From NCBI GenBank assembly GCA_903860135.1, contig CAIOPG010000009.1, forward strand, positions 111,805 to 175,804: DNA of 64,000 bases, written 5' to 3'. The position numbers and the translations under genes are program-made. This document shows, piece after piece, positions 1-36,188 of this stretch. Source of the DNA: Candidatus Omnitrophota bacterium. GTDB lineage: Bacteria; Omnitrophota; Gorgyraeia; Zapsychrales; Fredricksoniimonadaceae. The notes under the pieces are model-generated. The model had not been told where the DNA came from. It saw nothing but the letters and a program-made list of their open reading frames with translations, and did not search any database. Position 1 is the first letter of the stretch; each line of letters starts with the position of its first letter.

Positions 1-390
1 AACATTTTCAGCCGATGTTAAAATCATCCCGGTATCGAGCAAGTCTGAAACCTGCGCTTCCGGAACATATGTGGATTGTAAATCTGTCGTTAAGGTGTTT
101 GCTTCCTGAATGGCAACGACCGTCACCGGTGTTTCCGCAGGCGTTAAGGGTATAAAGGCAGGGAACAGATCAGAAGCGGATAAAAGAATCCGCGGCTCAA
201 GCGCTTCAAGTTGAAATTTTGACTGTCTTGAATTCACAAGCGGTATCCTGCCAAGATCAGGTGTATAAATTTTTTGATGATAAATTGAATTTACATCCAA
301 AGCCTGTTTACTGTCAACACCAAAATAAAAATTTTTTAAAGCCCTCAGGCAATATCGCCCTGACCGAAAGATAGTCCGTCTTCCAGCCAT
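1..390 (-). CDS. secA: C-terminal continuation of the SecA-family gene in a different frame (helical scaffold domain region); partial, runs off left edge
   Basis: The minus-strand frame opens at ATG 390..388 and has no stop before position 1. Its translation reads MAGRRTIFRSGRYCL...LEALEPRILLSASDL. This aligns with the SecA segment just after the point where the upstream ORF stops: RRAIYSQRNELL ... LRERILAQS. Confidence 0.45.
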   Translation of the reverse strand, partial: MAGRRTIFRSGRYCLRALKNFYFGVDSKQALDVNSIYHQKIYTPDLGRIPLVNSRQSKFQLEALEPRILLSASDLFPAFIPLTPAETPVTVVAIQEANTLTTDLQSTYVPEAQVSDLLDTGMILTSAENV

Positions 391-2333
391 GTGTCGGCCT
401 GCAGGACACTGCGGCGGCGCTGAGAATTACTCCTTAAGGCCGCAGCCTGGGCCCAATGGATCAGCCCTTGTGCAGCCTGATAAGCACCGGGATGCCCCTG
501 TTCCAATGCATAAGCGATTCGCTGGCGGACTGCTTCGGGTAAATATCGGCACAACAACTCATCATCCAGACTGACAAAAGACCGGGCACTGCCCGCATCT
601 CCCTGTCGTGCCGCCCGGCCAAAAAGTTGCCGGTCGATGCGCCGGCTTTCATGGCATTCGGTAGCAATAACATGCAACCCGCCCAAAGCCGCCACACCAT
701 TACCCAACAGAATATCCGTTCCGCGGCCAGCCATATTTGTGGCTACTGTTATCGCACCGTGCTGTCCGGCCTGGGCGACAATAGCCGCTTCTTCCTTATG
801 TTGAACCGCATTCAAAACCCGGTGAGACAAGTTCAACCGATCCAATCTGCGGGACAGGTCTTCACTGATCCGCACACTGCGCGTGCCGATCAGGACCGGC
901 CGTCCGCTGTGGTGAATCCGGGATATCTCTTCTGTAATGGCCTGCCATTTGGCTTCGTGAGTAACGCGTATCTGACGCTTATAAACCTGACGCTGGCAAG
1001 GTTTGTTTTCCAGGATTGGCACCACCGTCAGTCCATAGACCTGCCATAACTCCTGCCGAGCTTCACGCGCCGTACCGGTCATCCCGCACAACCGATGAAA
1101 GAACCGGAAGAATCGCTGAAAACTCAGCCGAGCCAAGGTCTCATTCATAGGCGAAATATCAAGGTTCTCCTTGGCCTCTATCATCTGATGCAATCCGGCC
1201 TGCCAGCTGCGTTGTGCCATCTTGCGGCCGGTGAACTCATCGACGATCACCACCTTGCCCTGATCCAGGACATATTGTTTGTCGCGAATATAGAATTCTC
1301 GTGCGGTCAAAGCCTGTTCCATCAACTCTTCGAGCCGGTGCACCCCCTGGAACATGACCGGAAAGCCTGCTGCTGCCGCCACAAGCCGTTCACGGCCGCG
1401 CCCGGTGATCCTAACCTCGTGATAACGGGTATCCACCTGATAATCAATGAGAGGATCGAATACCCCGGCCAACCTGGCAGCTGCGAAGCAGGCCGCAGTC
1501 AAAAATTGATCATTGCGGGCGCTGGATATGATCAGCGGCGTAACAGCTTCATCGATCAGCACACTATCGGCTTCATCCACAATAGCACTGTGGATCCCCC
1601 GCATCACCAGTTGCTGATCAAAGCGGGCCTGCATGCCCAAATAAGAGCGAATTTGCCGCCGATTATATTTCTGCAAGAGTCCCAAAAAAAGCCGGTCGCG
1701 CAGAAAATCCGCAGCCATTTCCTTTGCCGTCACATAGGTGATATCTTTCAAATAGTTTTCCCGGCGTTCAACGGGACTCATCACCCCGGTTACCGCGCCT
1801 GCGGAAACCCCGCAATAATCATACAAAGGTTTTAGCCAACGGCTATCCCGTTCGGCCAGATAATCATTAACAGTGATGATATGAGCCGGCAGGCCTGTCC
1901 AACCCAGAAGGACCGCATAAAGACCGGCCGTAAGGGTTTTTCCTTCTCCGGTAGCCATCTCAATGATATGGCCTTGGGCCAGGCCAAGGGCGCCGGCCAT
2001 CTGCACCCGATACGGGTCCAGTCCCAGACTGCGGCGAGCCGATTCCCGTACGGCGGCCAATGCCGACAGGATCGACTGTTCATGACCTGTCTTATGCCGC
2101 CGAAAAATGGAACGATATTGCCGTAACGAGGCCTTGAGCTGATCATCAGACATTCGTTCCATGGCCGATCGATACGTTTCGATGGCCATCGCTGATGTGC
2201 GCAATCGGCGGCTGACCAAAGGTGAATTGCGGAATAGCCCGGCGATATGGGCAAAGACCGCATCCGGCCCCGTCGGTAGAGGGCGAGGGCGAACAATAAG
2301 TGTCCGTTGATAGTCGTGACTCAATGTACTCAT
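345..2333 (-). CDS. secA: SecA-family preprotein translocase ATPase (motor domains NBD1/PPXD/NBD2 and start of HSD); reading frame broken near 380, so the gene may be a pseudogene or an assembly error
   Basis: SecA hallmarks are present: MATGEGKTLTA (Walker A), IVDEADSVLIDEAVTPLIIS (DEAD box), GMTGTA, ATNMAGRGTDI and HESRRIDRQLFGRAARQGDAGS. The N-terminus MSTLSHDYQRTL resembles SecA's SRNDRTL. The start at 2333 overlaps the stop of the upstream M50-HlyD gene as TGATG. The ORF track extends the start to 2402. Confidence 0.8.
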   Translation of the reverse strand: MSTLSHDYQRTLIVRPRPLPTGPDAVFAHIAGLFRNSPLVSRRLRTSAMAIETYRSAMERMSDDQLKASLRQYRSIFRRHKTGHEQSILSALAAVRESARRSLGLDPYRVQMAGALGLAQGHIIEMATGEGKTLTAGLYAVLLGWTGLPAHIITVNDYLAERDSRWLKPLYDYCGVSAGAVTGVMSPVERRENYLKDITYVTAKEMAADFLRDRLFLGLLQKYNRRQIRSYLGMQARFDQQLVMRGIHSAIVDEADSVLIDEAVTPLIISSARNDQFLTAACFAAARLAGVFDPLIDYQVDTRYHEVRITGRGRERLVAAAAGFPVMFQGVHRLEELMEQALTAREFYIRDKQYVLDQGKVVIVDEFTGRKMAQRSWQAGLHQMIEAKENLDISPMNETLARLSFQRFFRFFHRLCGMTGTAREARQELWQVYGLTVVPILENKPCQRQVYKRQIRVTHEAKWQAITEEISRIHHSGRPVLIGTRSVRISEDLSRRLDRLNLSHRVLNAVQHKEEAAIVAQAGQHGAITVATNMAGRGTDILLGNGVAALGGLHVIATECHESRRIDRQLFGRAARQGDAGSARSFVSLDDELLCRYLPEAVRQRIAYALEQGHPGAYQAAQGLIHWAQAAALRSNSQRRRSVLQADTWLEDGLSFGQGDIA

Positions 2334-4486
2334 CAGAGATAGTAGCGTTTCTGCAACAACTGTTGAACCCGGCGCCAGCCTTGTTTGAAAAGGGGCTCCC
2401 ATCGCAAATTATACCGGATGACTCCTGAACGGCCGTGCCAGAACACCACTCTTGCAGAATGCTCAAGCCCAACGCGCAACTCATAAAATGGTTCCGCTGA
2501 TTTGCGTCCGCTCTGGTCTTTGACATCCACCGGGATATCACCGCCCCCCATCCAGCCCAGGGCCAACGAAGGCAGTTCAGATTGCTCCATGGGAATCTTG
2601 ACATAACTCCGGCCAGCGATATCGATGTGGGCCTGGCCATGCAAACGCACCGTCGAAGAAAGAATCTCGTTAGCAAAAATACGCGACACATCCTGTTCCG
2701 ATACAACACTACGAAAAACAAAAGACCTCTCGTCAACGAGCTGACCCACGGGAAAGCCGCGCGGCAGCCACATTCCCCGGTAATTGGCCAAGTTGGGTGC
2801 TGACCACTGGGCATCGATCGGCGCCCGTACCAGGCATTCTTTCTGCTGACCCATCAGCTGATCCAGCTGTTCCTGTAAAGCTGCTATCCGCCGCTGGGTT
2901 GGATGAATATCTGCCGTAGTCCGCGCCAAATTTTCATGCAAACGGGCATTCTCCTGCTCAATGGCAGCTTTCACATCCTGAACTTTCCAGTCTAATTCCT
3001 GGTTCTCGATCCGTAAAAGCAATGTCCCTCTCTGGACACGGGAGCCGGACAAAGCCGGGGCCTCATGGATGATACCGGCCACAGGCATGGCAACCATCTG
3101 ATAGCCAGAAGCCTCGAGCACTCCCGTCGTCTTAAACGATGAAGGGAAGGGAATGATCGAACCAAAAAGGATCACGGCGAGGGCACCACCACCACATACG
3201 GCATAAGCCCGGCCTCGGACCTTCATCAGGCGTGGATTAAAGAAAAGATACTGGCTGGTACGGATAAGCGGCAAAATACCCCATGATACAAGCCCTGCGG
3301 CCCCCATCAGCATACCTAATAACAGAAAACGGTCCGATATAAAAAATAGGATGCCGATGGACAAAAAGAACCGGTAAATACCGCTCAGTATCCCATAAAT
3401 CGTCAACCACACGGCTTCTTTCCTTGACGTTACCGGCGGCTGAGCCTCGCGCATACCAAACACATAGCGTTCCAGGAAATAAGTCATTTCCTGCTGCGCC
3501 AACTGCGCCATATTGGCAATATCAAGAAGATCAGAAAGAATATAATAGCCGTCGTAACGCAACAGAGGGTTAATATTGAACAGGACCGTTGAGACCGATG
3601 CCACAAAAATAATATTATAAGCCAGGGAGTGGATCAGTCCCGGTCCGGTGGCCGCCCAGACAAAAACAGCCAGTGCGGCAATAAAAAGTTCCACGATCAT
3701 GCCAGCTGACCCCACCATGACGCGCGCAATTTTACGGCGAAACGCCCAAGCCCCGGACGCATCCACATAGGGCAATGGCGTAAAGATCATGAACATCACG
3801 CCCATAACATGCGTTTCTCCGCCAAAATGCCTGACGGCCATGGCATGCCCGAATTCATGCAAGGTCTTGACCAGCGCGAGTCCCAGATATAAAAGAAGAA
3901 GATTGGATGGCGCTAGAATCCCCTGGCTTTGCGCCTGCAATTCCTGCCAATGATCAACAGCACTTTTTATAGCAAACCCAAGCACCGCCAACCATAAAGC
4001 CGCTCCGAGTTTAGAAAAAATCCAGCAAAAGAACGGATAGACCCGATTCAGCCAGGGTTGAGGATCTAACAACGGGATACGGAAAAACATAATATTCTGC
4101 AGATTGAACCAACGGGTCTTGCGCTGGCGTTGTTGATTCCGTTCAAACAAGCGAAGACTTTCCCACGGCATCCGATACTGTAACAGATTAGCCTGATACA
4201 GCTGAGACAAAAGCTGAACCAGTTCTTCCTGGCCAGGAGCATGGTCCGGATCACGTTCCAGTGCTTGACGCCAAACATCTTCAACCGTATGCAATCCGTT
4301 CAAACGGGATAAAAATTCCCAGGCTTCGGGGCGAATACGAAAAAACGTATTCCCCAGCGGATCTTCGAGCACATACCATTTCTGTCCCTGAAAAAATTGC
4401 CGCCGGATATTCACAGCGGAACGCAAACAGATACGCTGGTCGGCAATACGGTACCAGGATTCATGGAACATTTTACTCTGGGACAT
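2333..4486 (-). CDS. Fusion of an M50 (site-2-protease-like) membrane metalloprotease domain with a C-terminal HlyD-type membrane-fusion (periplasmic adaptor) domain
   Basis: It has HEFGHAMAVRHFGGETH (HExxH zinc motif) inside hydrophobic segments and NPLLRYDGYYILSDLL (the S2P NxxPxxxxDG motif). The C-terminal ~300 aa show HlyD/biotin-lipoyl-like barrel features and a coiled coil (IENQELDWKVQDVKAAIEQENARLHENL). Confidence 0.75.
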   Translation of the reverse strand: MSQSKMFHESWYRIADQRICLRSAVNIRRQFFQGQKWYVLEDPLGNTFFRIRPEAWEFLSRLNGLHTVEDVWRQALERDPDHAPGQEELVQLLSQLYQANLLQYRMPWESLRLFERNQQRQRKTRWFNLQNIMFFRIPLLDPQPWLNRVYPFFCWIFSKLGAALWLAVLGFAIKSAVDHWQELQAQSQGILAPSNLLLLYLGLALVKTLHEFGHAMAVRHFGGETHVMGVMFMIFTPLPYVDASGAWAFRRKIARVMVGSAGMIVELFIAALAVFVWAATGPGLIHSLAYNIIFVASVSTVLFNINPLLRYDGYYILSDLLDIANMAQLAQQEMTYFLERYVFGMREAQPPVTSRKEAVWLTIYGILSGIYRFFLSIGILFFISDRFLLLGMLMGAAGLVSWGILPLIRTSQYLFFNPRLMKVRGRAYAVCGGGALAVILFGSIIPFPSSFKTTGVLEASGYQMVAMPVAGIIHEAPALSGSRVQRGTLLLRIENQELDWKVQDVKAAIEQENARLHENLARTTADIHPTQRRIAALQEQLDQLMGQQKECLVRAPIDAQWSAPNLANYRGMWLPRGFPVGQLVDERSFVFRSVVSEQDVSRIFANEILSSTVRLHGQAHIDIAGRSYVKIPMEQSELPSLALGWMGGGDIPVDVKDQSGRKSAEPFYELRVGLEHSARVVFWHGRSGVIRYNLRWEPLFKQGWRRVQQLLQKRYYL

Positions 4487-4492
4487 AAAGTG

Positions 4493-6355
4493 TCACCACC
4501 AGAACTTAACAAGCAGAAAATCAAGCGTTTTGTGCGTCCACATCCACAGCAAGGTCTTGTACCCGCCCCGGAGTTTACCAACACCCGTCATGCCTGGCCG
4601 CCACCACGACGGAGTTTCAGACAATAATGCCGCGTGGACAACAAAATAATTACCCTTGTCATTGGCTATCGCGACAGGTTCAATGCGTATAACCTTGACC
4701 CGGCGCATATCCTGAGGGCGGCTGGCCAGAATGACTTGTCCGTCAACCGCAAACTTAAGGTGTTGTATCTCCGATTCAGGGACATTCAATTCCACATAGA
4801 TCTTGCCGGACCGCGCAACCCGAAATAAATTTTCTCCCTGACGCACAATCGAACCGATACGTTCCTTGAGGTCCCCCTCAACAATAATGCCGTCAAACGG
4901 AGATTTAATGTCCATCTGTGACAAACGATATTGCACAAGCCCTCGCTTGGCAGTCGTCTGATCCACCATCGCCTGGGCCATGCGCATCGTTGCCAGATCA
5001 TCCTGCGCCCGGACTTTTTCTGTTTCACGTTGATAACGGCTGATCTCCGCCTCGAGCGACGAACTCTCGAGTTGCAATTCATCCTTATCCAACTGCAGGA
5101 GAACCTGACCCGTCACAACGTCATCTCCTGGGCGTACATTCACCGCGGCAATATGCCCGTCGGTCGGAGCCGTCAGGTAAGCCACATTATCGGTGCGCAC
5201 GATCACAGGCGCATGGACCTGATAAGGAAACGGAATAAGTGCCATGAGGATCACCAAACAACCAGCCCCTATCCAGAGATAACGCCAAAACTCTTTTCTG
5301 TTCTCTTGCCACCTGGCCAAAACCGACAAAAAACGGTGCCAAGCTACAAATCCGATCCAGCGGTCATTGTCTTTCAGGTCCGCCATTCGGCGAGAAATCC
5401 CATCACATTCCATATGAATCAACGCCAATTCCTGGGATGTAAAAGCACCGGTGGTGCGTTCTAACACAAAGCCGGCGACGGGAACGTCATTAAGACGTAA
5501 GGGAACTGTACAAAGAAACGGAAGTTTCTGCGATTTCTGGTACGCTTCATGGTCACGAACAATATGCCGGCCACTATTATCATGAGGCATGACAATCTCG
5601 GTATTTTGATCGAGTGCTTCCTCGACAACGGCCTCGAGCATTTTCACCTGATCCATCTTGGCTTCAAAATGATCCCGATGACTGATCGCCTTAAGCCGCA
5701 CATAATGCTTTTCCAGCCAGCCTAGACTGACCTGCTGACATTGATGGCGTCCGGCTATTTCATTGCATACCACCATCGCCGCGGCAAGGAAATGTTTCTC
5801 ATTATTGATCAATGAAGAAAGGTCAAGAATCCCGGCCAGATTTTCTACCTGTCCTTTAGCTTCCTGAAGCAGGCGCACGGTGTTGTAACTGGCAGGCACA
5901 TCCGCCAGCAGCAAGAGTTTTTCAAAACGCTCGGCGTTCGGCCGTGCGGTTCCTGAAGGCAGAATGAACCCCGCATAACATAAATCCTGCGACCGTCCGG
6001 TTAAAATGGGAAGTGCGACCACAAAACGATCGCCACTGATCCAAATGTCAACCACTGCCGTTGTACCAGCTAAAATATCCCGGTGAGAAAGCCACTCCAG
6101 AAAAATCCCGATCAGAAAGTGGGACTTTTTATCTGCGGGTGCTACCGTAATGGCCTGCCATGATTGACCGATGCCAGCATTCTTTACAGCAAGAACCCCG
6201 ACTTCCGCCTGACACTTCTTACAAAGGAAATCCAGATACGCTGGCCAAAATTCAGCCGGAGTCCCAATAAAATTCCGCAAGGCCAGAGCATCCGCCGGAG
6301 CGTTGTTCGGTGCAGGCGGTGGCCCGCTGTTATGGCGCGGTGAGTCCATTGTCAT
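4493..6355 (-). CDS. HlyD-family periplasmic adaptor with a large N-terminal cytoplasmic GAF-like sensor domain
   Basis: About 340 aa of soluble N-terminal domain are followed by a single TM (FWRYLWIGAGCLVILMALIPFPY). A HlyD signature follows: coiled coil plus the biotin-lipoyl hybrid motif (GQVLLQLD ... DIKSPFDGIIVEGDLKERIGSIVRQGENLFRVA). Confidence 0.7.
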   Translation of the reverse strand: MTMDSPRHNSGPPPAPNNAPADALALRNFIGTPAEFWPAYLDFLCKKCQAEVGVLAVKNAGIGQSWQAITVAPADKKSHFLIGIFLEWLSHRDILAGTTAVVDIWISGDRFVVALPILTGRSQDLCYAGFILPSGTARPNAERFEKLLLLADVPASYNTVRLLQEAKGQVENLAGILDLSSLINNEKHFLAAAMVVCNEIAGRHQCQQVSLGWLEKHYVRLKAISHRDHFEAKMDQVKMLEAVVEEALDQNTEIVMPHDNSGRHIVRDHEAYQKSQKLPFLCTVPLRLNDVPVAGFVLERTTGAFTSQELALIHMECDGISRRMADLKDNDRWIGFVAWHRFLSVLARWQENRKEFWRYLWIGAGCLVILMALIPFPYQVHAPVIVRTDNVAYLTAPTDGHIAAVNVRPGDDVVTGQVLLQLDKDELQLESSSLEAEISRYQRETEKVRAQDDLATMRMAQAMVDQTTAKRGLVQYRLSQMDIKSPFDGIIVEGDLKERIGSIVRQGENLFRVARSGKIYVELNVPESEIQHLKFAVDGQVILASRPQDMRRVKVIRIEPVAIANDKGNYFVVHAALLSETPSWWRPGMTGVGKLRGGYKTLLWMWTHKTLDFLLVKFWW

Positions 6356-7220
6356 TTGATAATGTCATGACAGCATTAAGGCCTGGCACAACACCTCCCT
6401 TATCATTATCGAGCAACACCTTGATTTTGCGCAGGCCGCTGGCGGCATCGGCTACAGGGGCAATATACTCTACCACCCCTTCCCGTCGTACCATCTGCTC
6501 CCCATCTCCTATCTTGAGAAAAACCCTGCGCCCGGTTTGTAACTGGCTGGCCAAATTATGATCAACATTCGTCACGAAACGAACCTTGCTAACATCAACC
6601 ACTCGAAAGACAGCTTCCTGCGGTTGGCAGGACTCGCCCGCCTCCAGCTTGAGGTCTACCACAATCCCGTCGAAAGGCGCCTTGATGAACCGCTTGTTAA
6701 GTTCGGCATTGGCCAGTTGGAATTCAAGCTGTTCACGCCGGCGTGTAACTTTCAAGTTGGCCACTTCATACTTGGCCAGGTCATAGTCCAGTTTCTTTTT
6801 GCGCAACTCCTCGGCACTGACGGAATGGGTTTGCTGATAAAGCGCCAGCGTACCTTTAAGGTCGTATAACAACAGCGCCACCTTGCTTAAGGCCGAATCA
6901 AGTTCACTGCTGTTGGTGGCAATAAGTTTACGCCGTTCCACTTCAAGCGTTTCGACTTCTTTTTCCAACTCAACCACCGGATCACCGCTTTTTACACAAT
7001 CACCTTCTTTATGGACAAGGCGAGCCACCTTACCGGCCACTTCAACCCCGATCTTTGCTTGACGGAAAGGCTCAATAATACCAGCACTCGAAAACGCTTC
7101 CGCACACCAGCCTTGACCGGGAGCCACTAGGATCATCGCAAATAATAAAAATATTCCGCCACTCCATGCGCGTATGCCTTGACGAGAAAAATAATTCAAG
7201 AATTTCATTTTAGTCCTCAA
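6330..7220 (-). CDS. HlyD/RND-type membrane fusion protein (periplasmic adaptor subunit)
   Basis: It has an N-terminal signal/anchor and the adaptor motifs GDCVKSGDPVVELEKE and KAPFDGIVVDLKLEAGE. It overlaps both the upstream and downstream genes, consistent with an operon. Confidence 0.8.
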   Translation of the reverse strand: MRTKMKFLNYFSRQGIRAWSGGIFLLFAMILVAPGQGWCAEAFSSAGIIEPFRQAKIGVEVAGKVARLVHKEGDCVKSGDPVVELEKEVETLEVERRKLIATNSSELDSALSKVALLLYDLKGTLALYQQTHSVSAEELRKKKLDYDLAKYEVANLKVTRRREQLEFQLANAELNKRFIKAPFDGIVVDLKLEAGESCQPQEAVFRVVDVSKVRFVTNVDHNLASQLQTGRRVFLKIGDGEQMVRREGVVEYIAPVADAASGLRKIKVLLDNDKGGVVPGLNAVMTLSNDNGLTAP

Positions 7221-8856
7221 GTTTTTCGTAATATTTTGAATACAACTTTGTGTTCTCGCTATAACTTTCCAGATTATTGTCGATCAACAACGAACCGCGC
7301 GTCAGGGCCAATTCCTGCACCATCTGATAATAGCGAACCTGTTGTTCGAGTGTTTTCTTTCGCGTATCCGCGTATTTTTCATTGACTTCATAAACCAAAC
7401 GATTATGACTTAACCCCATCTTCATTTTTCGAATCTCTATGTTCAGTAAAGACTTTTTAATGTCCGACGCGGTCTGATATGCCTTAACCCGCTGATTGAG
7501 TAGTTTTACCCGAGTAACAAGGGTATTGACCACCGCCATTACCGCAAAGCGGGTTTGCTTAAAGGATTCTTCGGATTTCTTACGTTTAATGCGGGCAGAA
7601 TCCAGTTCCCGACGCTCCTTAAACCCCAAAAGAAGAGGCACCTTGACTTCAAACCCGACAGACCAAGCGGGATAATTGTGATCTTGGATCTCATGCCAAG
7701 CTACCGAATTATCACGTCCATAGCCATTGTACCCGTAACGTCCGTTGACGTTGACTTCTGGAAAAGATTGATTGAGATAATAACGGTAGGCCATCTTGTC
7801 GCGCTCCAACTCATGGATCTTGATCATGATATCCGGCTGCCAATTTAATTCGTCTTCTGAAAGGCGCTCCAGATGAACCTTCATTTGCTTGTCGATCCAC
7901 CCACCGGATCGAGACATCCCTTGCACCCTGATCTTATGAACCGAATTATATTCTCGCTTGTATCCCAAGGTGATCTTAAGTTGATTCATAGCCACCAGCT
8001 GATCTTCATAAGCTTCACAGCGTGCGGCCAGCCCTTGCAAGAACTCAGAGCGGATATCCAGCAATTCAGCCTCGGACATCTTGCCCACGTTGTGGCGCAC
8101 CCGGCCGTCATCGAGCAACCATTTTAAAATGTGATACGTATCTGATGCAATACAAAATTTCTGTTGGGCAAAAGCCAGATTCCAGTACGCCGCCTGCACC
8201 TGATAAATACCTGCCATCAGTTTCTGACGGTATTGATGGTACCCGATAACACGATCTTCCAAAGCCAACCGTGTTTTGACCATTGGCGCACCAGACCATG
8301 CCCCTTTCAATAATGGCTGTGATAAATCCGCCCCGGTAAAGGCCTCATATTCACGCCCTGGCCGTGGATTAATATTGCTACGGATAGAATTCAAGGTATA
8401 CGCCAGTTTATATTCAGCGCCGGTAGGTAAAGCCCCCTTCAAACCGGTACTGTATTTGTCGGTCAAATCGTCATAGACCGGAAGGCCGCCCAAAGCAACA
8501 CTTTCTTGAGAGGTGTTCTCCCTTTTCAGGCCTTCTCTATTATAGGAGGCAAATACCTGTGGCTCGAATTCCCCAAGGCTAGCGACAACGGCATTGCGGC
8601 GTATCAACCAATCGTGGTAGGCATCCCTAACCTCAGGGTTGGTCTTGATCGCTTGGGCAACAACATCCATCAATGACAAGTCAGCTACAGGCAACGCTAA
8701 CGCTGTCGTTGTCCGGGTTAACGATAACAATATAAAAAGAATAATCGGGAATAAAGAATGAGGCATAACACGTGCGGTCAAGAAGCAAAGAAACACTTTC
8801 ATCACGTTATTCACCATTAGCAAGAAAGGTATCCATCGTCTCAAAACCAAAGTCAA
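7210..8856 (-). CDS. TolC-like outer membrane efflux protein (outer membrane factor)
   Basis: A signal peptide precedes typical OMF repeats (LSLMDVVAQAIKTNPEVRDAYHDWLIRRN). The 548-aa length is typical, and the gene is the first in a run of adaptor genes. Confidence 0.8.
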   Translation of the reverse strand: MTLVLRRWIPFLLMVNNVMKVFLCFLTARVMPHSLFPIILFILLSLTRTTTALALPVADLSLMDVVAQAIKTNPEVRDAYHDWLIRRNAVVASLGEFEPQVFASYNREGLKRENTSQESVALGGLPVYDDLTDKYSTGLKGALPTGAEYKLAYTLNSIRSNINPRPGREYEAFTGADLSQPLLKGAWSGAPMVKTRLALEDRVIGYHQYRQKLMAGIYQVQAAYWNLAFAQQKFCIASDTYHILKWLLDDGRVRHNVGKMSEAELLDIRSEFLQGLAARCEAYEDQLVAMNQLKITLGYKREYNSVHKIRVQGMSRSGGWIDKQMKVHLERLSEDELNWQPDIMIKIHELERDKMAYRYYLNQSFPEVNVNGRYGYNGYGRDNSVAWHEIQDHNYPAWSVGFEVKVPLLLGFKERRELDSARIKRKKSEESFKQTRFAVMAVVNTLVTRVKLLNQRVKAYQTASDIKKSLLNIEIRKMKMGLSHNRLVYEVNEKYADTRKKTLEQQVRYYQMVQELALTRGSLLIDNNLESYSENTKLYSKYYEKLED

Positions 8857-9181
8857 TTGTCCTCTTTAGTCTTCAAGGGTCTACTTAAACACAAAGCATC
8901 TGGTTAAAATCATTGATCTTTATGGCAGACAACAAGACTCTACTTAAATATAAATTTTGATATTTTTGATTGACAAGAAATACTACAACATAAATCGAAA
9001 TTCATCAATAAAATAAAATTTCACAAATATGACCCGAACTCCAAATTATAACTAGCACACGATGGATCAATAAATTATCTATAGGTCGGAGAGGCTAAGT
9101 GAACAACGGCATACTTCACGCCGTCAAGGACAGCAGCCATAGCAGTAATGACATGCCGTGTTATCTCCTGATGCAATACGA
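8857..9181. promoter_or_regulatory. AT-rich 325-bp intergenic region upstream of the tolC-led operon; contains a direct repeat TCTACTTAAA(C/T)A(C/T)AAA x2
   Basis: It is the largest non-coding gap in the left 18 kb. It lies immediately 5' of the tolC-like start and its repeat units are about 50 bp apart. Confidence 0.4.
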
Positions 9182-13552: not shown

Positions 13553-14284
13553 TTATAAGGTTTCTTTAAACCACGCCCAACACACCCCCATAAACTTCTC
13601 CGGTGCCTGGTCGAACATCGTCTCGGCATGACCCAATTTCTCGAGGATCACGAGCTTCTTGGGCTCCCTGGCCTGTGCAAATAATTTCCGGCTGTGCGCG
13701 GCGTTGATAAGCCAGTCATCGGCCCCATGCACAAACAAAACTGGCCGGGGAGCAATGCGCGCAACAACGTCGATGGGGGCTGTCTTGGGTTCCCATGGAT
13801 GCCCCGGACGAACCCCTTTGCCCCGTGCTTTATGTCCCATATTCAACTTTAAATCATCAAGCATTCCAGGTTTCCAGAACTGATAATCAATCTTCCAGAA
13901 ATCATACGGAGCGCTCACCGCGATCAGGGTTTTGATGTCAGGATTTTGTGCCGTTTCCAGCAGACTGATCGCGGCTCCCAACGAAAACCCCATCAAGCCG
14001 ATCGCCTCATACCCGCAGGTTTTCACATGATCGATCACGGCTTTTAAATCCGCGCATTCCCGGGATGTCCATGTGAAAAGCCCCGAACTTTTTCCATGCC
14101 CGCGGAAATCAAAAGCCACGACATCGTAATGAACAGCCAGGGCGTTAGCCATCGCACGAAAAAGATAGGCGTCTTTGGTATTGAAGAACCCATGTGCCAG
14201 GATAACCACCTTGTGGAACCCCTGCGCATGATGCACGGCTTCAATGCGATGTCCATCCTGGGTTTTTAACGTCACCTCACGCAT
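13553..14284 (-). CDS. Alpha/beta-hydrolase fold esterase/lipase (GxSxG)
   Basis: It has a GFSLGA nucleophile elbow and an HGFF oxyanion region. It overlaps the upstream aas-like gene by 8 nt. Confidence 0.75.
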   Translation of the reverse strand: MREVTLKTQDGHRIEAVHHAQGFHKVVILAHGFFNTKDAYLFRAMANALAVHYDVVAFDFRGHGKSSGLFTWTSRECADLKAVIDHVKTCGYEAIGLMGFSLGAAISLLETAQNPDIKTLIAVSAPYDFWKIDYQFWKPGMLDDLKLNMGHKARGKGVRPGHPWEPKTAPIDVVARIAPRPVLFVHGADDWLINAAHSRKLFAQAREPKKLVILEKLGHAETMFDQAPEKFMGVCWAWFKETL

Positions 14285-17200
14285 CAGTCTTACCTTTACT
14301 GGCTGCGGTCAATTCCTGGGCCAAAGCCTTGATGCGCTTTAAATCCGTCTTGCCCGTCCCCAAAACAGGGATCGCCTCAATGCGGTAAAAGTTATCTTTC
14401 TTGGGTATCCATAAATTGGGGATCCCTTTGCTGACCAGCGACGCGCATACTGCCTCAACATCCATATCAACCGTATGCACCACGACCAGCTTCTCGCCTT
14501 TCTTCTCATCGGCCACAGCGGTGACGGCCACCACCGGATCCGTCGCCCCGATCGCTTCCATGATATTTTCTTCAACCTTAATATGCGGCACCATCTCACC
14601 GCCGATCTTGCTGAAACGGCTCAGGCGGTCGGTGATCTTGATAAACCCGTCTGCGTCGATCGTGGCAATATCGCCGGTGATATACCAGCCATCCTTGAGG
14701 ACCTCAGCTGTTTTCCCGGGATTATTCAAATATCCCTTCATCACATTAGCGCCTTTAACCAAAAGCAACCCATCCTGATCCGGCCCCTTGAGTTCAAAGG
14801 TATCCGGGTCGACCACCTTGGCCGCTACTCCTGGGATAGGATGCCCTACTTTGCCGAACTTGTGGCCGGTCTGTGTGGCGTCAGCTCCTCCCTTATAATG
14901 CGGAAACCCGACGGTCACAATCGGCGACAGTTCGGTTGCGCCATAGCCTTCGAACGGAACAAACCCAAACTTTTCCTGAAAAGCCTGCGCCAATGGCTCT
15001 TTCAGTTTCTCGGCGCCGACAACGGCCATGCGCACGGTAGCAAACTGTTCTTTTGTGCATTTCTTGACATACGCTGACAAGAAGGTCGGCGTTCCCATCA
15101 GGATCGTCCCTTTGTATTTTAAGGCCAGTTTGCCGATGGTACCGGCATCGAGCGGATTGGTGTGGTAAACAACACCGACAGCCGTGCCGACGGGGAAACA
15201 CAGGGTCGCGGTGAATCCAAAAGAATGGAAAAATGGCAATGCCGCCACCACCACATCGTTCTTCTGTATATTAAAAACCTGATACAACCCTTCGATATTG
15301 GAAAAAACATTAGCGTGCGTCAATTGAACCCCCTTGGGTTCGCCTGTCGAACCGCTTGAGAATATCACGGTCGCCGTCTCATCCACGTTGAGCTTGTCAC
15401 CGCGCACAAACAGGGCACTCAAGGCCCGGGCAGGCAAGATAAACGCCGCCAAGAAATACAGCCCCGCCGCCATAGGATGGATCCGGACCTTGATATCCTC
15501 CAGAAAGACCATCTCCGGCTTAACGGCAATCCCGGCTTTCTCCACGAAGGCCCGTGACGTGATGATCATCCGCATGGCGCACTGCCTGACACAGGAATCA
15601 AATGCTTCCGCCGAAAGCGTAAAGTTCAGATTAACGGGAATCTTGCCCGCGAATGCCACTGCCAGATTACACATAGCCGCCATGCATGATGACGGTAATA
15701 ATATTCCTACCATATCCGGAGAATCTTTTAACTGACGCACGGGATGAAACAATACCCTCGCCATGGCAACTACCCCGGCAAAAACCTGGGGATATGTCAG
15801 GTGTGTGCCCATCGAGTCTGCCATACAGGATTTGAACGGATGGCGTTTCACTTCGTCGACAAACGCCAGATGCAGTTTCTTGCGCCATGCCCCGCGTAAA
15901 ATGTTTGCCTCCGCTCCGAGCTCCTGCACGGTCAGTCGAACCTCATGCACCTTTGCCGTAGCAGGCATCGCTTTCCCGAAAACAATAGATACCGGATAAA
16001 GTGTAAAACGCGGGATCTTCCAGAAATAACGGCCATGGGCAAACGTATAAATACTACCCCAGATATTATCGAGATACAGCGGGATGATCGGTGCCGTGAG
16101 CCCTTTCATGATGTGTTCAAAACCTTTATTAAACGGCAGCATATTCCCTGTCCGCGTTAAATGCCCTTCAGGGAAAATACATACCAGCTCACCGCTTTCG
16201 ATCGCTTGCCTCGCGGTTAAAAGGGCGGTCATGATGGCTTTGGGACCTTCAGAACTATCGATCGGGATCACCTTAAGGATACGGCAAAAAAGATTGATCA
16301 CCGGAAGTGCATACATCTTGCGATACATGATAAAGCGTACCGGGCGTTTGAGGGCCGCGAGGATCAGGATCGCATCAACATAGGAAATGTGATTGGCAAT
16401 GAGCAGCGCCCCGCCTTCTTCCGGCACATGCGCACTGTTGACCACGCGCAATTTATAGATCGAATGCGCCAACAGCCAATTCACCAGACGCACCAGCGCG
16501 ATGGGTAAGGTCACGACGATATAGATCGTGGCCAAGAGCGCCATCCCCGCGATGATCCAGAAGATCTTGTCCGGACCGATCGCCAGCTGTCCTCCAAAAT
16601 ACCAAAGGAATGCCCCGGCCACCAATGACCCGCACGCTGAAACCATATTAAGCACAGACAGATACTGCCCGCGCTCTGCCGTCGGGCTCCAGCGCTGGAA
16701 GAACGCATTGAGCGGCACGGTATAAAACCCGGCGCAAACGCCGAGGATAAACAACAGGATCATGGCCATATTAAAATGACCGCCCCATCCCAGCAAGAAC
16801 GACATCAGTGTCATCCCTAGGGCACCCAGCGGCACGAGGCCGAGCTCGACTTTCTTTTCCGACGCCGCTCCCGCCCAGACACTCCCGGCGGCAATGCCCA
16901 GGGAAACGGCAACAAGAAGGATGCTGATATGCACCTGGTCAACTGCCAGCACATGCGCCCCGTAAACAAGGATGTTCATCTGAAATACAGCCCCCAGAAA
17001 ACTAAAGAAAGCCAGGGCGATCATCGTCAGGAAAAGCCCCTTGTCTTTGAGTATCCCTGAAAACGCATTGCCCGCACCGGAAAAAAATCCCTGTGGCAAT
17101 GTGTTGATCGGCTGTTCTGCGCGGATCAAGAAACTAACACCAAACCCTACCAAAGCCAGAGCCGCCATCACAAACCCGACACTAAACAAATGCCCTGAAA

Positions 17201-17735
17201 GGATCTTGAACAATAGCCCGCCCGCCGCTGTGCCCAAGATGATCCCGCTAAAAGTACACAACTGAAAATACCCGTTGCCCCGCGAAAGCTCTTCCTCATC
17301 CAACATCTCCGGCAATATCCCCAGCTTGGCCGGGCTGAACAGAGCACTATCGATCATGAACAATAATAATGCCCCACACAAAAACCATAAATCCCCCGTT
17401 GACAAAGCCCATGCGCCCAGGAGTGCCAGCCCGATCTTGACCAGCCCCATCAGAATAATAATGGTGCGCTTGTTGAAACGATCTGATAAATACCCCGCCA
17501 GCGGCGATAATATAATAAAAGGAAGGACATATAAGATCCCGACGATACTGACTGCGGCCGCCGCTTCACCGGCAGACACCAATACCTGAAGGGCATACAA
17601 GGACACCACCACTTTCAACAAGCTGTCCGTGACAGCTCCCAGGAATTGCGCCCCGAGCAGGGCTTTAAACGATACCGACTGGCACGTCTTGTCCATGATA
17701 ATCCTCCTCGATAAGCCCCCACATATCTTCGCCAT
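14277..17735 (-). CDS. aas: Tri-domain fusion: MFS lysophospholipid transporter (LplT-like) + PlsC-type acyltransferase + AMP-binding acyl-ACP/CoA synthetase (Aas-like)
   Basis: About 400 aa of MFS transmembrane helices come first. Then follows the HxxxxD acyltransferase motif (ANHISYVDAILI), then the AMP-binding motif IFSSGSTGEPKGVQLTH. The total is 1152 aa. Confidence 0.8.
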   Translation of the reverse strand: MAKICGGLSRRIIMDKTCQSVSFKALLGAQFLGAVTDSLLKVVVSLYALQVLVSAGEAAAAVSIVGILYVLPFIILSPLAGYLSDRFNKRTIIILMGLVKIGLALLGAWALSTGDLWFLCGALLLFMIDSALFSPAKLGILPEMLDEEELSRGNGYFQLCTFSGIILGTAAGGLLFKILSGHLFSVGFVMAALALVGFGVSFLIRAEQPINTLPQGFFSGAGNAFSGILKDKGLFLTMIALAFFSFLGAVFQMNILVYGAHVLAVDQVHISILLVAVSLGIAAGSVWAGAASEKKVELGLVPLGALGMTLMSFLLGWGGHFNMAMILLFILGVCAGFYTVPLNAFFQRWSPTAERGQYLSVLNMVSACGSLVAGAFLWYFGGQLAIGPDKIFWIIAGMALLATIYIVVTLPIALVRLVNWLLAHSIYKLRVVNSAHVPEEGGALLIANHISYVDAILILAALKRPVRFIMYRKMYALPVINLFCRILKVIPIDSSEGPKAIMTALLTARQAIESGELVCIFPEGHLTRTGNMLPFNKGFEHIMKGLTAPIIPLYLDNIWGSIYTFAHGRYFWKIPRFTLYPVSIVFGKAMPATAKVHEVRLTVQELGAEANILRGAWRKKLHLAFVDEVKRHPFKSCMADSMGTHLTYPQVFAGVVAMARVLFHPVRQLKDSPDMVGILLPSSCMAAMCNLAVAFAGKIPVNLNFTLSAEAFDSCVRQCAMRMIITSRAFVEKAGIAVKPEMVFLEDIKVRIHPMAAGLYFLAAFILPARALSALFVRGDKLNVDETATVIFSSGSTGEPKGVQLTHANVFSNIEGLYQVFNIQKNDVVVAALPFFHSFGFTATLCFPVGTAVGVVYHTNPLDAGTIGKLALKYKGTILMGTPTFLSAYVKKCTKEQFATVRMAVVGAEKLKEPLAQAFQEKFGFVPFEGYGATELSPIVTVGFPHYKGGADATQTGHKFGKVGHPIPGVAAKVVDPDTFELKGPDQDGLLLVKGANVMKGYLNNPGKTAEVLKDGWYITGDIATIDADGFIKITDRLSRFSKIGGEMVPHIKVEENIMEAIGATDPVVAVTAVADEKKGEKLVVVHTVDMDVEAVCASLVSKGIPNLWIPKKDNFYRIEAIPVLGTGKTDLKRIKALAQELTAASKGKTDA

Positions 17736-18195: not shown

Positions 18196-20085
18196 TTAAG
18201 GCCTTAATTGATACCAAGCCTGGAACATGATGTAAGTTCCTATTTTCTTCCGATGATCGTTCTTAAATGTCGCGTGTTCCAGGAACATTTGTTTAATATA
18301 AACAGGATCAAATAATCCCTGTTTCTTGAGATAGCCTTCATCAAAAAATTCATTGATCAAACCGCGACAGCGCCTGTCCTGCAACCACTTTGTAAATGGT
18401 ATGGCAAAGCCCTGTTTCCTTCTCTTTAAAATTTTATTGGGCACATATTTTTGCGCAACCGCCTTAAAAAGGCGCTTTTGAAAAATATAATCTGTGGGTA
18501 AATGCCAGGCAAATTCCATTAATTGATGATCAAGATACGGAACCCGTAACTCAAGGGAAGCGGCCATCGAGGCTCTATCGGCTTTGACCAAGAGGTCATC
18601 TGTCAAATAACCATAAATATCCATATATTGGATTTTCTTGAGGACATTGTTAGCTGAAGTCCGACTCAAAATATTTCTATAGTGCTCTTCCAATCCAGCA
18701 GGATCTATCGTTCCAAATATATTTGAAGCGAACAATGACTTTTTTTCTTCCGCCAGAAAAGCCCCCATCCACTTTAAATGACGCGCGCACGGATCTTTCA
18801 AAACCCTTCCGGCGCGTAGAAATTGCCTGGCTTTAAACCCTAATGTAAAATATTCAGAACTGACCGGTAAACAATTACCCAAGACATGGGGAAGGCTTCT
18901 CAATAATGACGCCGGTATAGCCTTAGAACTCTCAAGGAATTTATGGGCCAAATAAGTAGGATACCCCATGAACAACTCATCGCCGCCTTCACCGGACAAG
19001 GCAGTCTTGACGTATTGTCGAACAAAACGGCTCAGGAAGTATGTCGGGAATACTGACATATCCCCTAGCGGCTCATCGAGTTGTCGGGATACCTCGGGAA
19101 AGATCGAAATAAAATCATTCAATGTAAAGACGCGGTGATGATGCTGTGTGCCCAGTGAGCGCGCAACCATATGGGCATATTCGGATTCATCAAAAGTTCG
19201 TTCTTCAAAACCAATAGAAAAAGTATTGCATTTTCCCGATAAGGACCGCATTGCCAAAGCAGCCAGGGTGCTGGAATCAAGCCCACCGCTTAAAAGTACC
19301 CCGACCGGAACATCTGCTGTCAAATGTTCATGGACAGAAGTCTTCAGCAATTGCTCCAAACGTTCACCAGCATCCGGAAAAGAAATAACCCTGGCCTCGG
19401 CCTTTGATCGTCCTAAATCCCAATACCCATGCTCCTCCAGGCCTGACGGGCTGTGGATCAAGAACGTTCCTGGTCTTAATTTATATAGATTTTTGTAGAT
19501 ACAAAAAGGCGCGGGAACATATTCCAGTGAAAAGTACAGATCAAGTGCCTTAAGATCAAGCTCACGACTAATAAAAGGCAAATTCAATAACGGCTTTATT
19601 TCAGAAGCAAAAGCAAAAATGCTCTGGTTATGGAAATAATATAATGGCTTTATCCCGAATCTGTCCCGGGCAACAAACAGGTTCTTCTTTTTGTTATCCC
19701 ACAAAGCAAAAGCAAACATCCCCTTCAGCCGCTCAAGGCACCGCTCACCTATTTCTTCATAAAGATGGACAATGACCTCGATATCCGTTGTTGAATGAAA
19801 CTTGTGGGATCGTTGTTGCAGTTCTGCCCTTAGGGCTGAAGCATTATAAATTTCTCCGTTGCAAACAAGAATTAGCGATCTGTCTTCATTAAAGATTGGC
19901 TGAACACCGGCTGTCGAGAGATCCACAATGCTTAACCTTGTGGCACCAAGGAACAGCCTTTCTTCAACACCGCAATATTCCCCCCTGGCATCAGGCCCTC
20001 GATGCGACAGAGCATCGAGCATCCTGTAACGTATATCCTGCAAATCATCAGGTGCTATGCCTTTAACACCACAAATACCACACAT
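18196..20085 (-). CDS. asnB: Asparagine synthetase B-type glutamine amidotransferase (class II GATase + PP-loop synthetase domain)
   Basis: It has N-terminal MCGICG, then RGPD, then a SGGLDSS PP-loop. The 629-aa length fits. Confidence 0.85.
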   Translation of the reverse strand: MCGICGVKGIAPDDLQDIRYRMLDALSHRGPDARGEYCGVEERLFLGATRLSIVDLSTAGVQPIFNEDRSLILVCNGEIYNASALRAELQQRSHKFHSTTDIEVIVHLYEEIGERCLERLKGMFAFALWDNKKKNLFVARDRFGIKPLYYFHNQSIFAFASEIKPLLNLPFISRELDLKALDLYFSLEYVPAPFCIYKNLYKLRPGTFLIHSPSGLEEHGYWDLGRSKAEARVISFPDAGERLEQLLKTSVHEHLTADVPVGVLLSGGLDSSTLAALAMRSLSGKCNTFSIGFEERTFDESEYAHMVARSLGTQHHHRVFTLNDFISIFPEVSRQLDEPLGDMSVFPTYFLSRFVRQYVKTALSGEGGDELFMGYPTYLAHKFLESSKAIPASLLRSLPHVLGNCLPVSSEYFTLGFKARQFLRAGRVLKDPCARHLKWMGAFLAEEKKSLFASNIFGTIDPAGLEEHYRNILSRTSANNVLKKIQYMDIYGYLTDDLLVKADRASMAASLELRVPYLDHQLMEFAWHLPTDYIFQKRLFKAVAQKYVPNKILKRRKQGFAIPFTKWLQDRRCRGLINEFFDEGYLKKQGLFDPVYIKQMFLEHATFKNDHRKKIGTYIMFQAWYQLRP

Positions 20086-35897: not shown

Positions 35898-36188
35898 TCA
35901 CAGGCCCCTCACTTTTTGATCAACAAGATCCCTGATCTCCTGCTTTAAAGCGTTAGCATATTGTCCGGAACGTTCCATATTGGAAAGGATCCTGGCAAAG
36001 TCATGTCGAATTTCAAATATCAACTGCCCCATGATGGCCAATAGCCTTAATAAAAACCAGCTAATAAAGCTTCCAAAAACCATCAACCAGAAAGATAACA
36101 TCATCGGTGTAAAGAAAAATACGGCCATGAAGATACCTGCCGCTAAAAGGATGTGCGCGAATAATTTGATGTAACGTGTTGTTCTCAT
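35898..36188 (-). CDS. Small two-TM membrane protein
   Basis: Its start and stop abut the flanking genes and it has two hydrophobic helices. Function is unknown. Confidence 0.45.
   Translation of the reverse strand: MRTTRYIKLFAHILLAAGIFMAVFFFTPMMLSFWLMVFGSFISWFLLRLLAIMGQLIFEIRHDFARILSNMERSGQYANALKQEIRDLVDQKVRGL

Follow-up and report, generated by a model that had tools for sequence, protein, structure and literature searches.

To our knowledge, the export of proteins of at least 10,000 residues across two membranes is largely uncharted, and the routes described for giant adhesins are type I systems that are driven by ABC transporters and read C-terminal signals. Giant RTX adhesins such as LapA (exported by LapBCE, with LapG/LapD) and MpIBP depend on an ABC transporter and a C-terminal signal, leave the cell C-terminus first and are handled by a soluble periplasmic cysteine protease. 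Colicin V, which uses CvaAB-TolC, and other substrates of peptidase-containing ABC transporters carry an N-terminal leader that is cut by a protease domain borne on the machinery itself, and this cleavage is coupled to export. The accessory SecA2-SecY2 systems of Gram-positive bacteria employ a second, full-length SecA for very large adhesins, along with their own SecY2 channel and accessory proteins. The locus studied here occupies the left end of a 64,000-nucleotide stretch of Candidatus Omnitrophota DNA (contig CAIOPG010000009.1, positions 111,805 to 175,804; 'the window' below). It comprises five genes, for a TolC-family channel, three different periplasmic adaptors and a truncated SecA paralogue, and it adjoins the start of a giant gene whose product begins with a leader of the LEPR-XLL type. 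With a probability of roughly 0.6, the five genes encode an ABC-independent, type-I-like envelope exporter for very large proteins with LEPR leaders, the cargo in this case being the adjacent protein of about 10,200 amino acids (aa).

Loci of this kind have been reported before. Kamneva, Poudel & Ward (2015, PLoS One, PMC4452313) described secondary SecA_DEAD proteins from which the wing/scaffold domain has been lost and which are encoded together with Peptidase_M50/HlyD, GAF/HlyD and small HlyD/biotin-lipoyl proteins, sometimes with OEP, and without an ABC transporter. The locus occurs in several phyla, apparently spread by horizontal transfer, and the authors suggested SecA_DEAD as its ATPase and the M50 protein as a possible pore. 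Theirs is a bioinformatic description that names no substrate and mentions neither an N-terminal RRE/PqqD domain nor sister modules without SecA. The window cassette has the same features, namely a SecA_DEAD protein lacking wing and scaffold, M50/HlyD, GAF/HlyD and small HlyD proteins with the optional OEP, and no ABC gene. It is a further member of a kind already described in silico, and a preliminary description of the window, which had presented the system as new, was mistaken on this point. Gene set and ATPase/pore proposal are the same as those of 2015; what is added here is the LEPR giants as probable cargo. In the literature searched, neither the link to LEPR giants nor the RRE domain nor the SecA-less modules came up, no later paper treating the system was found, and LEPR-XLL and DUF4347 appear only incidentally.

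The cassette resembles colicin V-type secretion in its adaptor and TolC conduit and in a leader that would be recognized and cut by the protease of the inner-membrane machinery. It differs in having no ABC transporter, in its M50 and RRE domains in place of a C39 cysteine protease, in its SecA-type ATPase, in its three adaptors and in a presumed cargo of thousands of residues rather than a small bacteriocin. Unlike the SecA2 proteins, the SecA paralogue falls below every SecA2 model cut-off, is truncated after NBD2 and is partnered with adaptors and TolC in diderms. A further relative was reported by West-Roberts et al. (preprint 10.1101/2023.11.21.568195), who found SecA motor and preprotein-binding domains without scaffold and wing inside giant proteins of Omnitrophota and Actinobacteriota; these embedded domains were suggested to help export the giants, and the neighbouring genes are type-II-secretion-like. 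In the window, by contrast, the motor is a separate 662-aa protein within a TolC/adaptor operon.

A compact cassette and its conservation

The five cassette genes are, in order of reading:

7210-8856, minus strand: TolC-family outer-membrane channel (OEP); the longest open reading frame (ORF) has 548 aa, and the likely start at 8817 gives 535 aa
6330-7208, minus strand: plain periplasmic adaptor of the HlyD/RND_mfp type, 292 aa; its N-terminus is a membrane anchor or signal sequence
4493-6355, minus strand: GAF-adaptor fusion (GAF-HlyD), 620 aa
2333-4486, minus strand: three-part fusion of an RRE (PqqD-like) domain, an M50 domain and an adaptor (M50-HlyD), 717 aa
345-2333, minus strand: truncated SecA paralogue (SecA-like), 662 aa

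An ORF check of the window places all five on the minus strand at the coordinates given in the preliminary description, and the tight junctions bear out its view of them as one compact unit. The OEP stop codon TAA is followed after 1 nucleotide (nt) by the ATG of the plain adaptor, the plain adaptor and GAF-HlyD genes overlap by 26 nt, and 6 nt separate GAF-HlyD from M50-HlyD. The stop of M50-HlyD and the start of the SecA-like gene overlap as TGATG, which suggests translational coupling. Gene calls were compared on two public contigs (257 kb and 272 kb) that are identical in sequence to the window region. The TolC gene is preceded by a 325-nt AT-rich gap holding the first of two promoter-like sites:

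8947-8976, minus strand: promoter-like site upstream of the TolC gene (TTGTCA, 18 nt, TATATT; 10 of 12 consensus positions), a consensus match only
288-317, minus strand: promoter-like site in the interval from the SecA-like stop codon to the giant-gene start (TTGACA, 18 nt, TAAATT; 10 of 12 positions), also a consensus match only

From the second site, the giant gene may have a promoter of its own beside read-through from the cassette. Promoter and terminator scans of the region gave site counts not above those of shuffled controls, so a single cassette transcript is inferred from gene spacing only.

A cassette with a membrane fusion protein and a TolC-family outer-membrane factor has two of the components of classical type I secretion; the dedicated ABC transporter is missing. 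No ABC, RND or MFS gene is present in the five-gene operon (window 1-9000). On the identical public contigs, the gene immediately to the left of the window, where a pump might have been encoded, is an ORF of 10,202-10,223 aa. Homologous clusters do not regularly pair with a separate pump either, since only one ABC-like ORF was found within 10 kb on either side of the cassette across 83 related loci. The absence of an ABC, RND or MFS partner, put forward in the preliminary description, therefore holds for the operon, for its left neighbour and for conserved neighbours in related loci. The only ABC_tran gene in the window (36188-38518) lies 27 kb away in an unrelated cluster.

The sole MFS domain near the cassette belongs to a 1,152-aa fusion of MFS_1, acyltransferase and AMP-binding domains (14277-17735, minus strand), 5 kb off, and this fusion is not conserved as a cassette neighbour in other genomes. 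The upstream genes (Hexapep, AAA_16, DUF2339 and the MFS-acyltransferase fusion) were considered as parts of the system and rejected, as they are absent from other loci.

The cassette is widespread. More than 5,000 relatives of the M50 fusion, of about 718 aa and roughly 50% identical, are found in many phyla, and the nearest relatives of the window protein have 50-55% identity. The family forms 5,459 clusters at 50% identity (E<=1e-30) and is carried by at least 589 species-representative genomes. Among 80 genome loci fetched for gene-order counts, the fusion has the SecA-like gene after it in 64 of 67 informative cases and GAF-HlyD before it in 60 of 66; an OEP gene lies within the locus in 33 of 44 and a plain adaptor in 35 of 44. 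An order kept to this degree (64/67 and 60/66) is not a chance arrangement, and the suggestion that the fusion might recur beside GAF-HlyD and SecA paralogues is thus borne out.

The giant gene and its leader

Beyond the SecA-like gene, the left edge of the window holds the beginning of another gene on the same strand, which the preliminary description overlooked and which is the likely substrate gene of the system:

1-237, minus strand: 5' end of the giant gene, encoding the proposed substrate; it runs off the left window edge and encodes 10,202-10,223 aa on the full contigs
175-216, minus strand: LEPR-XLL leader motif FQLEALEPRILLSA, 7 aa after the GTG start and behind basic residues

The likely start is the GTG at 237, preceded by AGGA, with a TTG at 300 as the alternative. 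The protein begins MNSRQSKFQLEALEPRILLSASD... and is a very large protein whose N-terminus scores 26.7 bits against the NCBIfam model NF012209 LEPR-8K (LEPR-XLL), above the 17-bit cut-off. PG_binding_1 is the only Pfam domain in its first 2,635 aa, and when six LEPR proteins were searched along with this part of the window giant, it was the sole significant domain in the whole set. From 80 independent cases, the leader consists of a basic stretch, the core [FL]-x-[LF]-E-x-L-E-P-R-[LVI]-L-L-S-[AG]-D and a segment rich in Ala, Leu, Gly and Val. Within the core, two Glu and one Arg are invariant and an Asp is frequent; the segment that follows is Ala-rich and weakly hydrophobic. A Tat-like reading of the basic stretch as R-R-x-F was rejected: the residues occur in only 20-35% of sequences, and export of a 10,000-aa protein in folded form is implausible.

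The association between leader and cassette is seen from both directions. In the forward direction, a strict LEPR pattern matches 21 times in six-frame ORFs from 1.3 Mb of related loci, compared with one match in reversed-sequence controls, and in 19 of the 21, a large ORF starts 12-45 aa before the match. A small hidden Markov model finds a LEPR ORF within 10 kb in 18 of 57 loci, in 13 of them directly after the SecA-like gene and on the same strand. Loci with such pairs come from Verrucomicrobiota, Lentisphaerota, Planctomycetota and Gammaproteobacteria in addition to the lineage of the window. Large ORFs are common in the long loci, 26 of 35 having one of at least 1,000 aa and 12 of 35 one of at least 2,000 aa.

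In the reverse direction, 84 metagenome loci were chosen only by a DNA pattern for L-E-x-L-E-P-R-x-[LM]-L-S-[AG]. Of their 86 matches, essentially all fall in the N-terminal part of a long ORF and follow a basic stretch. Four families recur among the neighbours, namely response regulators (6 loci), SecA-like proteins (5), SapC (3) and HlyD (3); in its 5 loci, the SecA-like gene is directly upstream of the LEPR gene. SecA-like, SapC and HlyD are the only secretion components among these recurrent neighbours; no ABC transporter recurs beside the LEPR genes of the 84 loci. The DNA-pattern scan supersedes a weaker reverse test with protein fragments. A LEPR profile search of a set of 5.8 billion proteins returned only fragments of at most 81 aa, five of which lie on long contigs: one has the cassette 6 kb away, one lies near SapC and a SecA_DEAD remnant, one near SapC alone, one ahead of a 12,386-aa ORF and one near nothing relevant.

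In two cultured isolates, the full system is plasmid-borne. Pseudosulfitobacter sp. DSM 107133 (plasmid pDSM107133_a, NZ_CP085155.1) encodes a 12,918-aa protein, named LEPR-XLL in RefSeq, with the N-terminus ..MEALEPRFLLSADP; its gene is followed by those for GAF-HlyD, the M50 fusion, SapC, the SecA paralogue and HlyD. In Methylosinus sp. C49 (plasmid pMSC49a, NZ_AP022333.1), the gene for an 8,847-aa LEPR protein (N-terminus ..FDTLEPRVLLNADV, also ..DTLEPRVLLNAD) precedes those for DUF3467, GAF-HlyD, the fusion, the SecA paralogue, HlyD and TolC.

Sister modules extend the association. These consist of TolC, HlyD, a HlyD protein of about 440 aa and an RRE-M50-HlyD fusion, without a SecA gene, and they are plasmid-borne in Azospirillum, Kosakonia, Citrobacter (8 plasmids) and E. 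coli (18 plasmids), for example on the IncF plasmid of E. coli MS 115-1 (NZ_CP146666.1, 123597-143348). Their fusion proteins are 25-28% identical to those of the cassette and keep the RRE domain, the motifs HELGH and NLNPLMRFDG and the adaptor. The large genes ahead of the sister modules encode Ig-like or DUF4347 proteins of 2,347-4,968 aa that start with MALEPRFMFDAAG, ..WSLEPRMLFDGA or ..FALESRQLFDGA (variants ..SLEPRMLFDGA and ..LESRQLFDGA); this xxFDGA form of the leader was found in none of the SecA-containing loci. A further locus of note is on plasmid pCSC3H3 of Thalassospira marina (NZ_CP024200.1, 193606-212571), where the genes after that for a 4,033-aa LEPR-XLL protein encode DUF3467, GAF-HlyD, the M50 fusion, HlyD and TolC and leave no space for a SecA-like gene. 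Because SecA-less modules also pair with LEPR-type proteins, the leader tracks the RRE-M50-adaptor fusion, with the SecA paralogue as a frequent but not universal partner. The E. coli sister module is a tractable model without an obvious ATPase, and with the full system on the plasmids of the two cultured isolates, the exporter proposal is directly testable.

Giant surface proteins beside dedicated TolC-type systems invite comparison with the Lap systems, in which, as proposed here, a protease acts on the N-terminal part of the cargo. The LEPR proteins may differ from Lap-type cargo in their C-termini: no C-terminal element is common to 13 complete LEPR ORFs from other loci, although type I secretion signals are poorly conserved in sequence. 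Nor do these ORFs have shared RTX repeats, RTX motifs being rare among them. Systems for giant RTX adhesins are also mentioned in a preprint (10.64898/2026.03.19.712371).

A proposed export route and its alternatives

The SecA paralogue matches Pfam SecA_DEAD (299.9 bits) and PP_bind (77.3 bits) as well as P-loop_SecA. It scores 570.7 bits against the SecA equivalog model NF009538, whose cut-off is 814 bits, and is below the cut-offs of all SecA2 models. It aligns to residues 18-603 only of the 841 in B. subtilis SecA, a range that covers the DEAD motor (NBD1 and NBD2), the preprotein cross-linking domain (PPXD) and the start of the scaffold helix; the wing domain (HWD), two-helix finger and C-terminal tail (CTL) are missing. 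The ATPase motifs are intact (GEGKT at residue 129, DEAD at 253, TGTA at 419, GRGTD at 536 and RQGD at 576), and by these motifs the motor is predicted to be catalytically competent. In both cultured records, RefSeq names the SecA paralogue 'prepilin peptidase' (WP_244635385.1, WP_114295152.1). The two proteins (14216-16132 of the locus fetched from NZ_AP022333.1 and 15071-17095 of that from NZ_CP085155.1) match SecA_DEAD at 331-347 bits together with PP_bind and P-loop_SecA, and their naming seems to be a systematic misannotation.

A protein clearly homologous to SecA and equipped with a preprotein clamp, in a cassette without a dedicated inner-membrane channel gene, might be taken to work with the general secretion pathway. 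The paralogue would then hand LEPR proteins to SecYEG, the adaptors and TolC would serve only the step from periplasm to outside, and M50 would act as a signal-peptide-type peptidase on a leader that does have a basic N-region followed by a mildly hydrophobic stretch. Such a two-step route is distinctly unlikely. The parts of SecA used for coupling to SecY (two-helix finger, wing domain and C-terminal tail) are absent from the paralogue, as also noted in PMC4452313, and the charged core of the leader, with its invariant Glu and Arg and frequent Asp, is unlike the hydrophobic region of a Sec signal. Translational coupling of the SecA-like gene to the M50 fusion, and its adjacency in 64 of 67 loci, point to a direct partnership between these two proteins. 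In addition, sister modules that have no SecA gene still pair with LEPR-type proteins.

The fusion protein contains the following parts:

4187-4429, minus strand: RRE (PqqD-like) domain, putatively leader-peptide-binding, aa 20-100, predicted to be cytoplasmic
3845-3859, minus strand: HEFGH zinc-binding/catalytic motif of the M50 domain, aa 210-214, read from the sequence
3548-3577, minus strand: NINPLLRYDG, second site-2-protease motif with the third zinc ligand Asp, aa 304-313
2336-3151, minus strand: periplasmic adaptor part, aa 446-717, with lipoyl, alpha-hairpin and beta-barrel domains

Seven predicted transmembrane segments orient the fusion so that its RRE domain faces the cytoplasm and its adaptor part the periplasm. 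The preliminary description would have given up its M50 assignment if the domain failed profile thresholds, and the window copy does score only 14.9 bits against PF02163, whose gathering score is 27.2. However, Peptidase_M50 is matched in 19 of 20 orthologues (E<=0.01, best 4.4e-10), and both the HExxH motif and the zinc-binding-Asp motif (NxxPxxxxDG) of M50/site-2 proteases are present, with H210, E211, H214, N304, N306, P307, D312 and G313 invariant in the 20 aligned orthologues. The domain also has the site-2-protease core fold. The M50 domain is real on the strength of these orthologues, motifs and predicted fold, which overrule the sub-threshold score. PqqD likewise scores below its Pfam gathering score in the window copy (13.3 bits) and is matched in 7 of 20 orthologues. 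The first 100 aa form a three-stranded sheet and three-helix winged-helix fold that matches RRE domains solved with bound leader peptides.

Residues 23-397 of the fusion match the NCBIfam model daptide_HExxH, an intramembrane leader peptidase of the daptides, with an E value of 1e-48 (166 bits, under the equivalog cut-off of 300), and its N-terminal part matches YydH/LiaK with an E value of 8e-10. The protein thus resembles, over its N-terminal 400 aa, the M50-type leader peptidases of ribosomally synthesized and post-translationally modified peptides (RiPPs), such as the daptide protease and YydH/LiaK, and in its first 100 aa the RRE proteins PqqD and lasso-peptide B1. It differs from the RiPP peptidases in scoring below their equivalog cut-off, in its fusion to a periplasmic adaptor, in the absence of RiPP-modifying enzymes nearby and in a presumed leader on proteins of 1,000-13,000 aa. 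Homology of the M50 half to RiPP leader peptidases, together with a putatively leader-binding RRE domain, is consistent with the proteolysis-coupled export suggested in the preliminary description; its alternative of a signalling system found no support.

The remaining cassette proteins would supply the conduit. The OEP protein matches Pfam OEP at 104.6 bits, split over two stretches. Gene calls on the identical public contigs give it 530-535 aa, with a start equivalent to 8817, and its hydrophobic N-terminus is an N-terminal signal sequence. The plain adaptor matches HlyD_3 (63.3 bits), HlyD_D23 (59.6 bits) and TIGR01730 RND_mfp (105.5 bits, cut-off 94.9). GAF-HlyD begins with a cytoplasmic region of about 350 aa in which the GAF domain lies; a single transmembrane helix (aa 359-377) leads to its periplasmic HlyD part, which matches HlyD_3 and HlyD_D23. 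GAF itself scores 15.6 bits in the window copy, under the PF01590 gathering score of 22.4, and is matched in 19 of 20 orthologues of this adaptor (best E 6.6e-10); at the family level, the domain is present as judged by these matches.

In the order of events that we propose, the cytoplasmic RRE domain of the fusion would bind the leader, and the truncated SecA paralogue would push the unfolded chain from its N- to its C-terminus, possibly during translation. The paralogue would be suited to this task in keeping the DEAD motor and preprotein clamp without the parts that dock canonical SecA on SecY. For passage through the inner membrane, the seven-transmembrane M50 domain may assemble with the membrane anchors of the plain adaptor and GAF-HlyD. 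A mixed periplasmic tunnel docking on the TolC-family channel could then be formed by all three adaptors; a structure match to 6vej, a fused two-adaptor construct from RND efflux, offers a precedent for mixed adaptors. The M50 intramembrane metalloprotease would cut off the leader, and the GAF domain on the second adaptor might be a cytoplasmic docking or gating module. With an N-terminal signal and a SecA-type motor, export could begin during translation, which would spare the cell an unfolded chain of 10,000 residues.

The cassette is read as an exporter because the giant ORF directly downstream passes the LEPR-XLL model and because the forward and reverse tests, the cultured isolates and the co-variation with sister modules all connect leader and cassette. 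The same reading is favoured by the RRE fold, the homology of the M50 half to RiPP leader peptidases, the predicted topology and the intact SecA motor without SecY-docking parts. If it is correct, a common 'dark' N-terminal tag, LEPR-XLL, gains a function, a SecA paralogue and a site-2 protease each gain a new job, and a surface or secreted location becomes predictable for many unannotated giant proteins. A broader proposal, which we rate at somewhat below even odds, is that these loci represent a distinct unnamed secretion pathway of diderms. The RRE domain would read the LEPR leader, the protease-adaptor fusion would be both leader peptidase and inner-membrane translocon, and the SecA paralogue would drive N-to-C export, possibly co-translational, of proteins from 1,000 to more than 12,000 residues through mixed adaptors and TolC with no ABC transporter; SecA-less modules would form a second branch.

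The timing of cleavage allows for a different function. The leader might stay bound to the RRE-M50 fusion so that the giant is displayed while threaded through the adaptors and TolC, until GAF-gated cleavage by M50 releases it, a functional analogue of LapA retention with its LapG/LapD-controlled release. Protease and candidate sensor domain each occur as an adaptor fusion, regulation is typical of site-2 proteases, and the Ala-rich, weakly hydrophobic segment after the motif could sit in the intramembrane active site; a peptidoglycan-binding domain early in the giant also fits a protein that spans the envelope. We regard tethering of this sort as unlikely, given that no ligand or regulator was identified and that the M50 half is most closely related to constitutive RiPP leader peptidases, not to regulated signalling proteases, although sequence analysis alone cannot tell it apart from direct export.

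Several points weigh against the exporter reading as a whole. The family is known from sequence alone, no protein of the cassette can be named with certainty as channel-forming, and the window copies of GAF, M50 and PqqD all score below their Pfam thresholds. Neither the SecA-less modules nor the Thalassospira locus, itself of the LEPR-XLL type, encode the SecA paralogue, so a gene for it in cis is not a universal requirement, and the energy source and pore proposed here are tentative. About one in eight independently sampled LEPR genes adjoins a cassette, so that most substrates would have to be encoded elsewhere. Conversely, no LEPR gene lies within 10 kb of 39 of the 57 cassettes; several of these loci, however, contain convergent giant ORFs that begin beyond the fetched DNA. 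The DNA examined also ends short of the region beyond the 30-kb giant gene.

The many cassettes without a LEPR gene in their fetched flanks could be explained if proximity to giant genes were incidental and the cassette served efflux of small molecules or small peptides, maturation and export of a RiPP, or site-2-protease signalling. RRE domains are hallmarks of RiPP pathways, and the M50 half resembles the daptide and YydH/LiaK proteases. Such a role is nonetheless very improbable. Neither a conserved short precursor gene nor a RiPP-modifying enzyme was found in 83 loci, and the short LEPR ORFs that do occur are contig-end fragments or lie ahead of giant or fragmented large ORFs. Moreover, the association of LEPR leaders with very large ORFs holds in both search directions and in several phyla.

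Accessory genes and the rest of the window

Some additional genes recur at these loci. SapC-family genes (PF07277; 248.7 bits in locus L058) are found beside SecA-like or LEPR genes, at the following positions and also in loci L087, L089, L095, L148 and L154:

L055, 5789-6526: SapC-family gene
L058, 15114-15854: SapC-family gene
L059, 15395-16126: SapC-family gene
L213 (Pseudosulfitobacter), 14257-15078: SapC-family gene

Genes for SapC and TolC have also been reported beside giant genes of Chlorochromatium (preprint 10.64898/2026.03.19.712371). On a Desulfobacter contig (L087), a short LEPR ORF, SapC and a 209-aa SecA_DEAD fragment lie beside transposases, an arrangement that looks like a decayed copy. 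A signal-peptide protein of about 200 aa without a Pfam match is encoded directly after the SecA-like gene in four loci (L004, 14191-14790; L008, 5796-6395; L014, 14158-14799; L023, 11748-12371). A DUF3467 protein of about 100 aa is encoded between the giant gene and GAF-HlyD in Methylosinus (L212, 9738-10058) and Thalassospira (L223, 9681-9977).

Elsewhere in the window, a long cluster of co-oriented genes (18196-39288, minus strand) is by its position unrelated to the cassette. It includes:

18196-20085, minus strand: asparagine synthase
27451-29391, minus strand: class-V aminotransferase fusion
33158-35893, minus strand: 911-aa B12-binding/radical-SAM/SPASM protein
36188-38518, minus strand: 776-aa ABC_tran protein, preceded by a 257-aa ORF

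This may be a cluster for modification and export of a polysaccharide or peptide.

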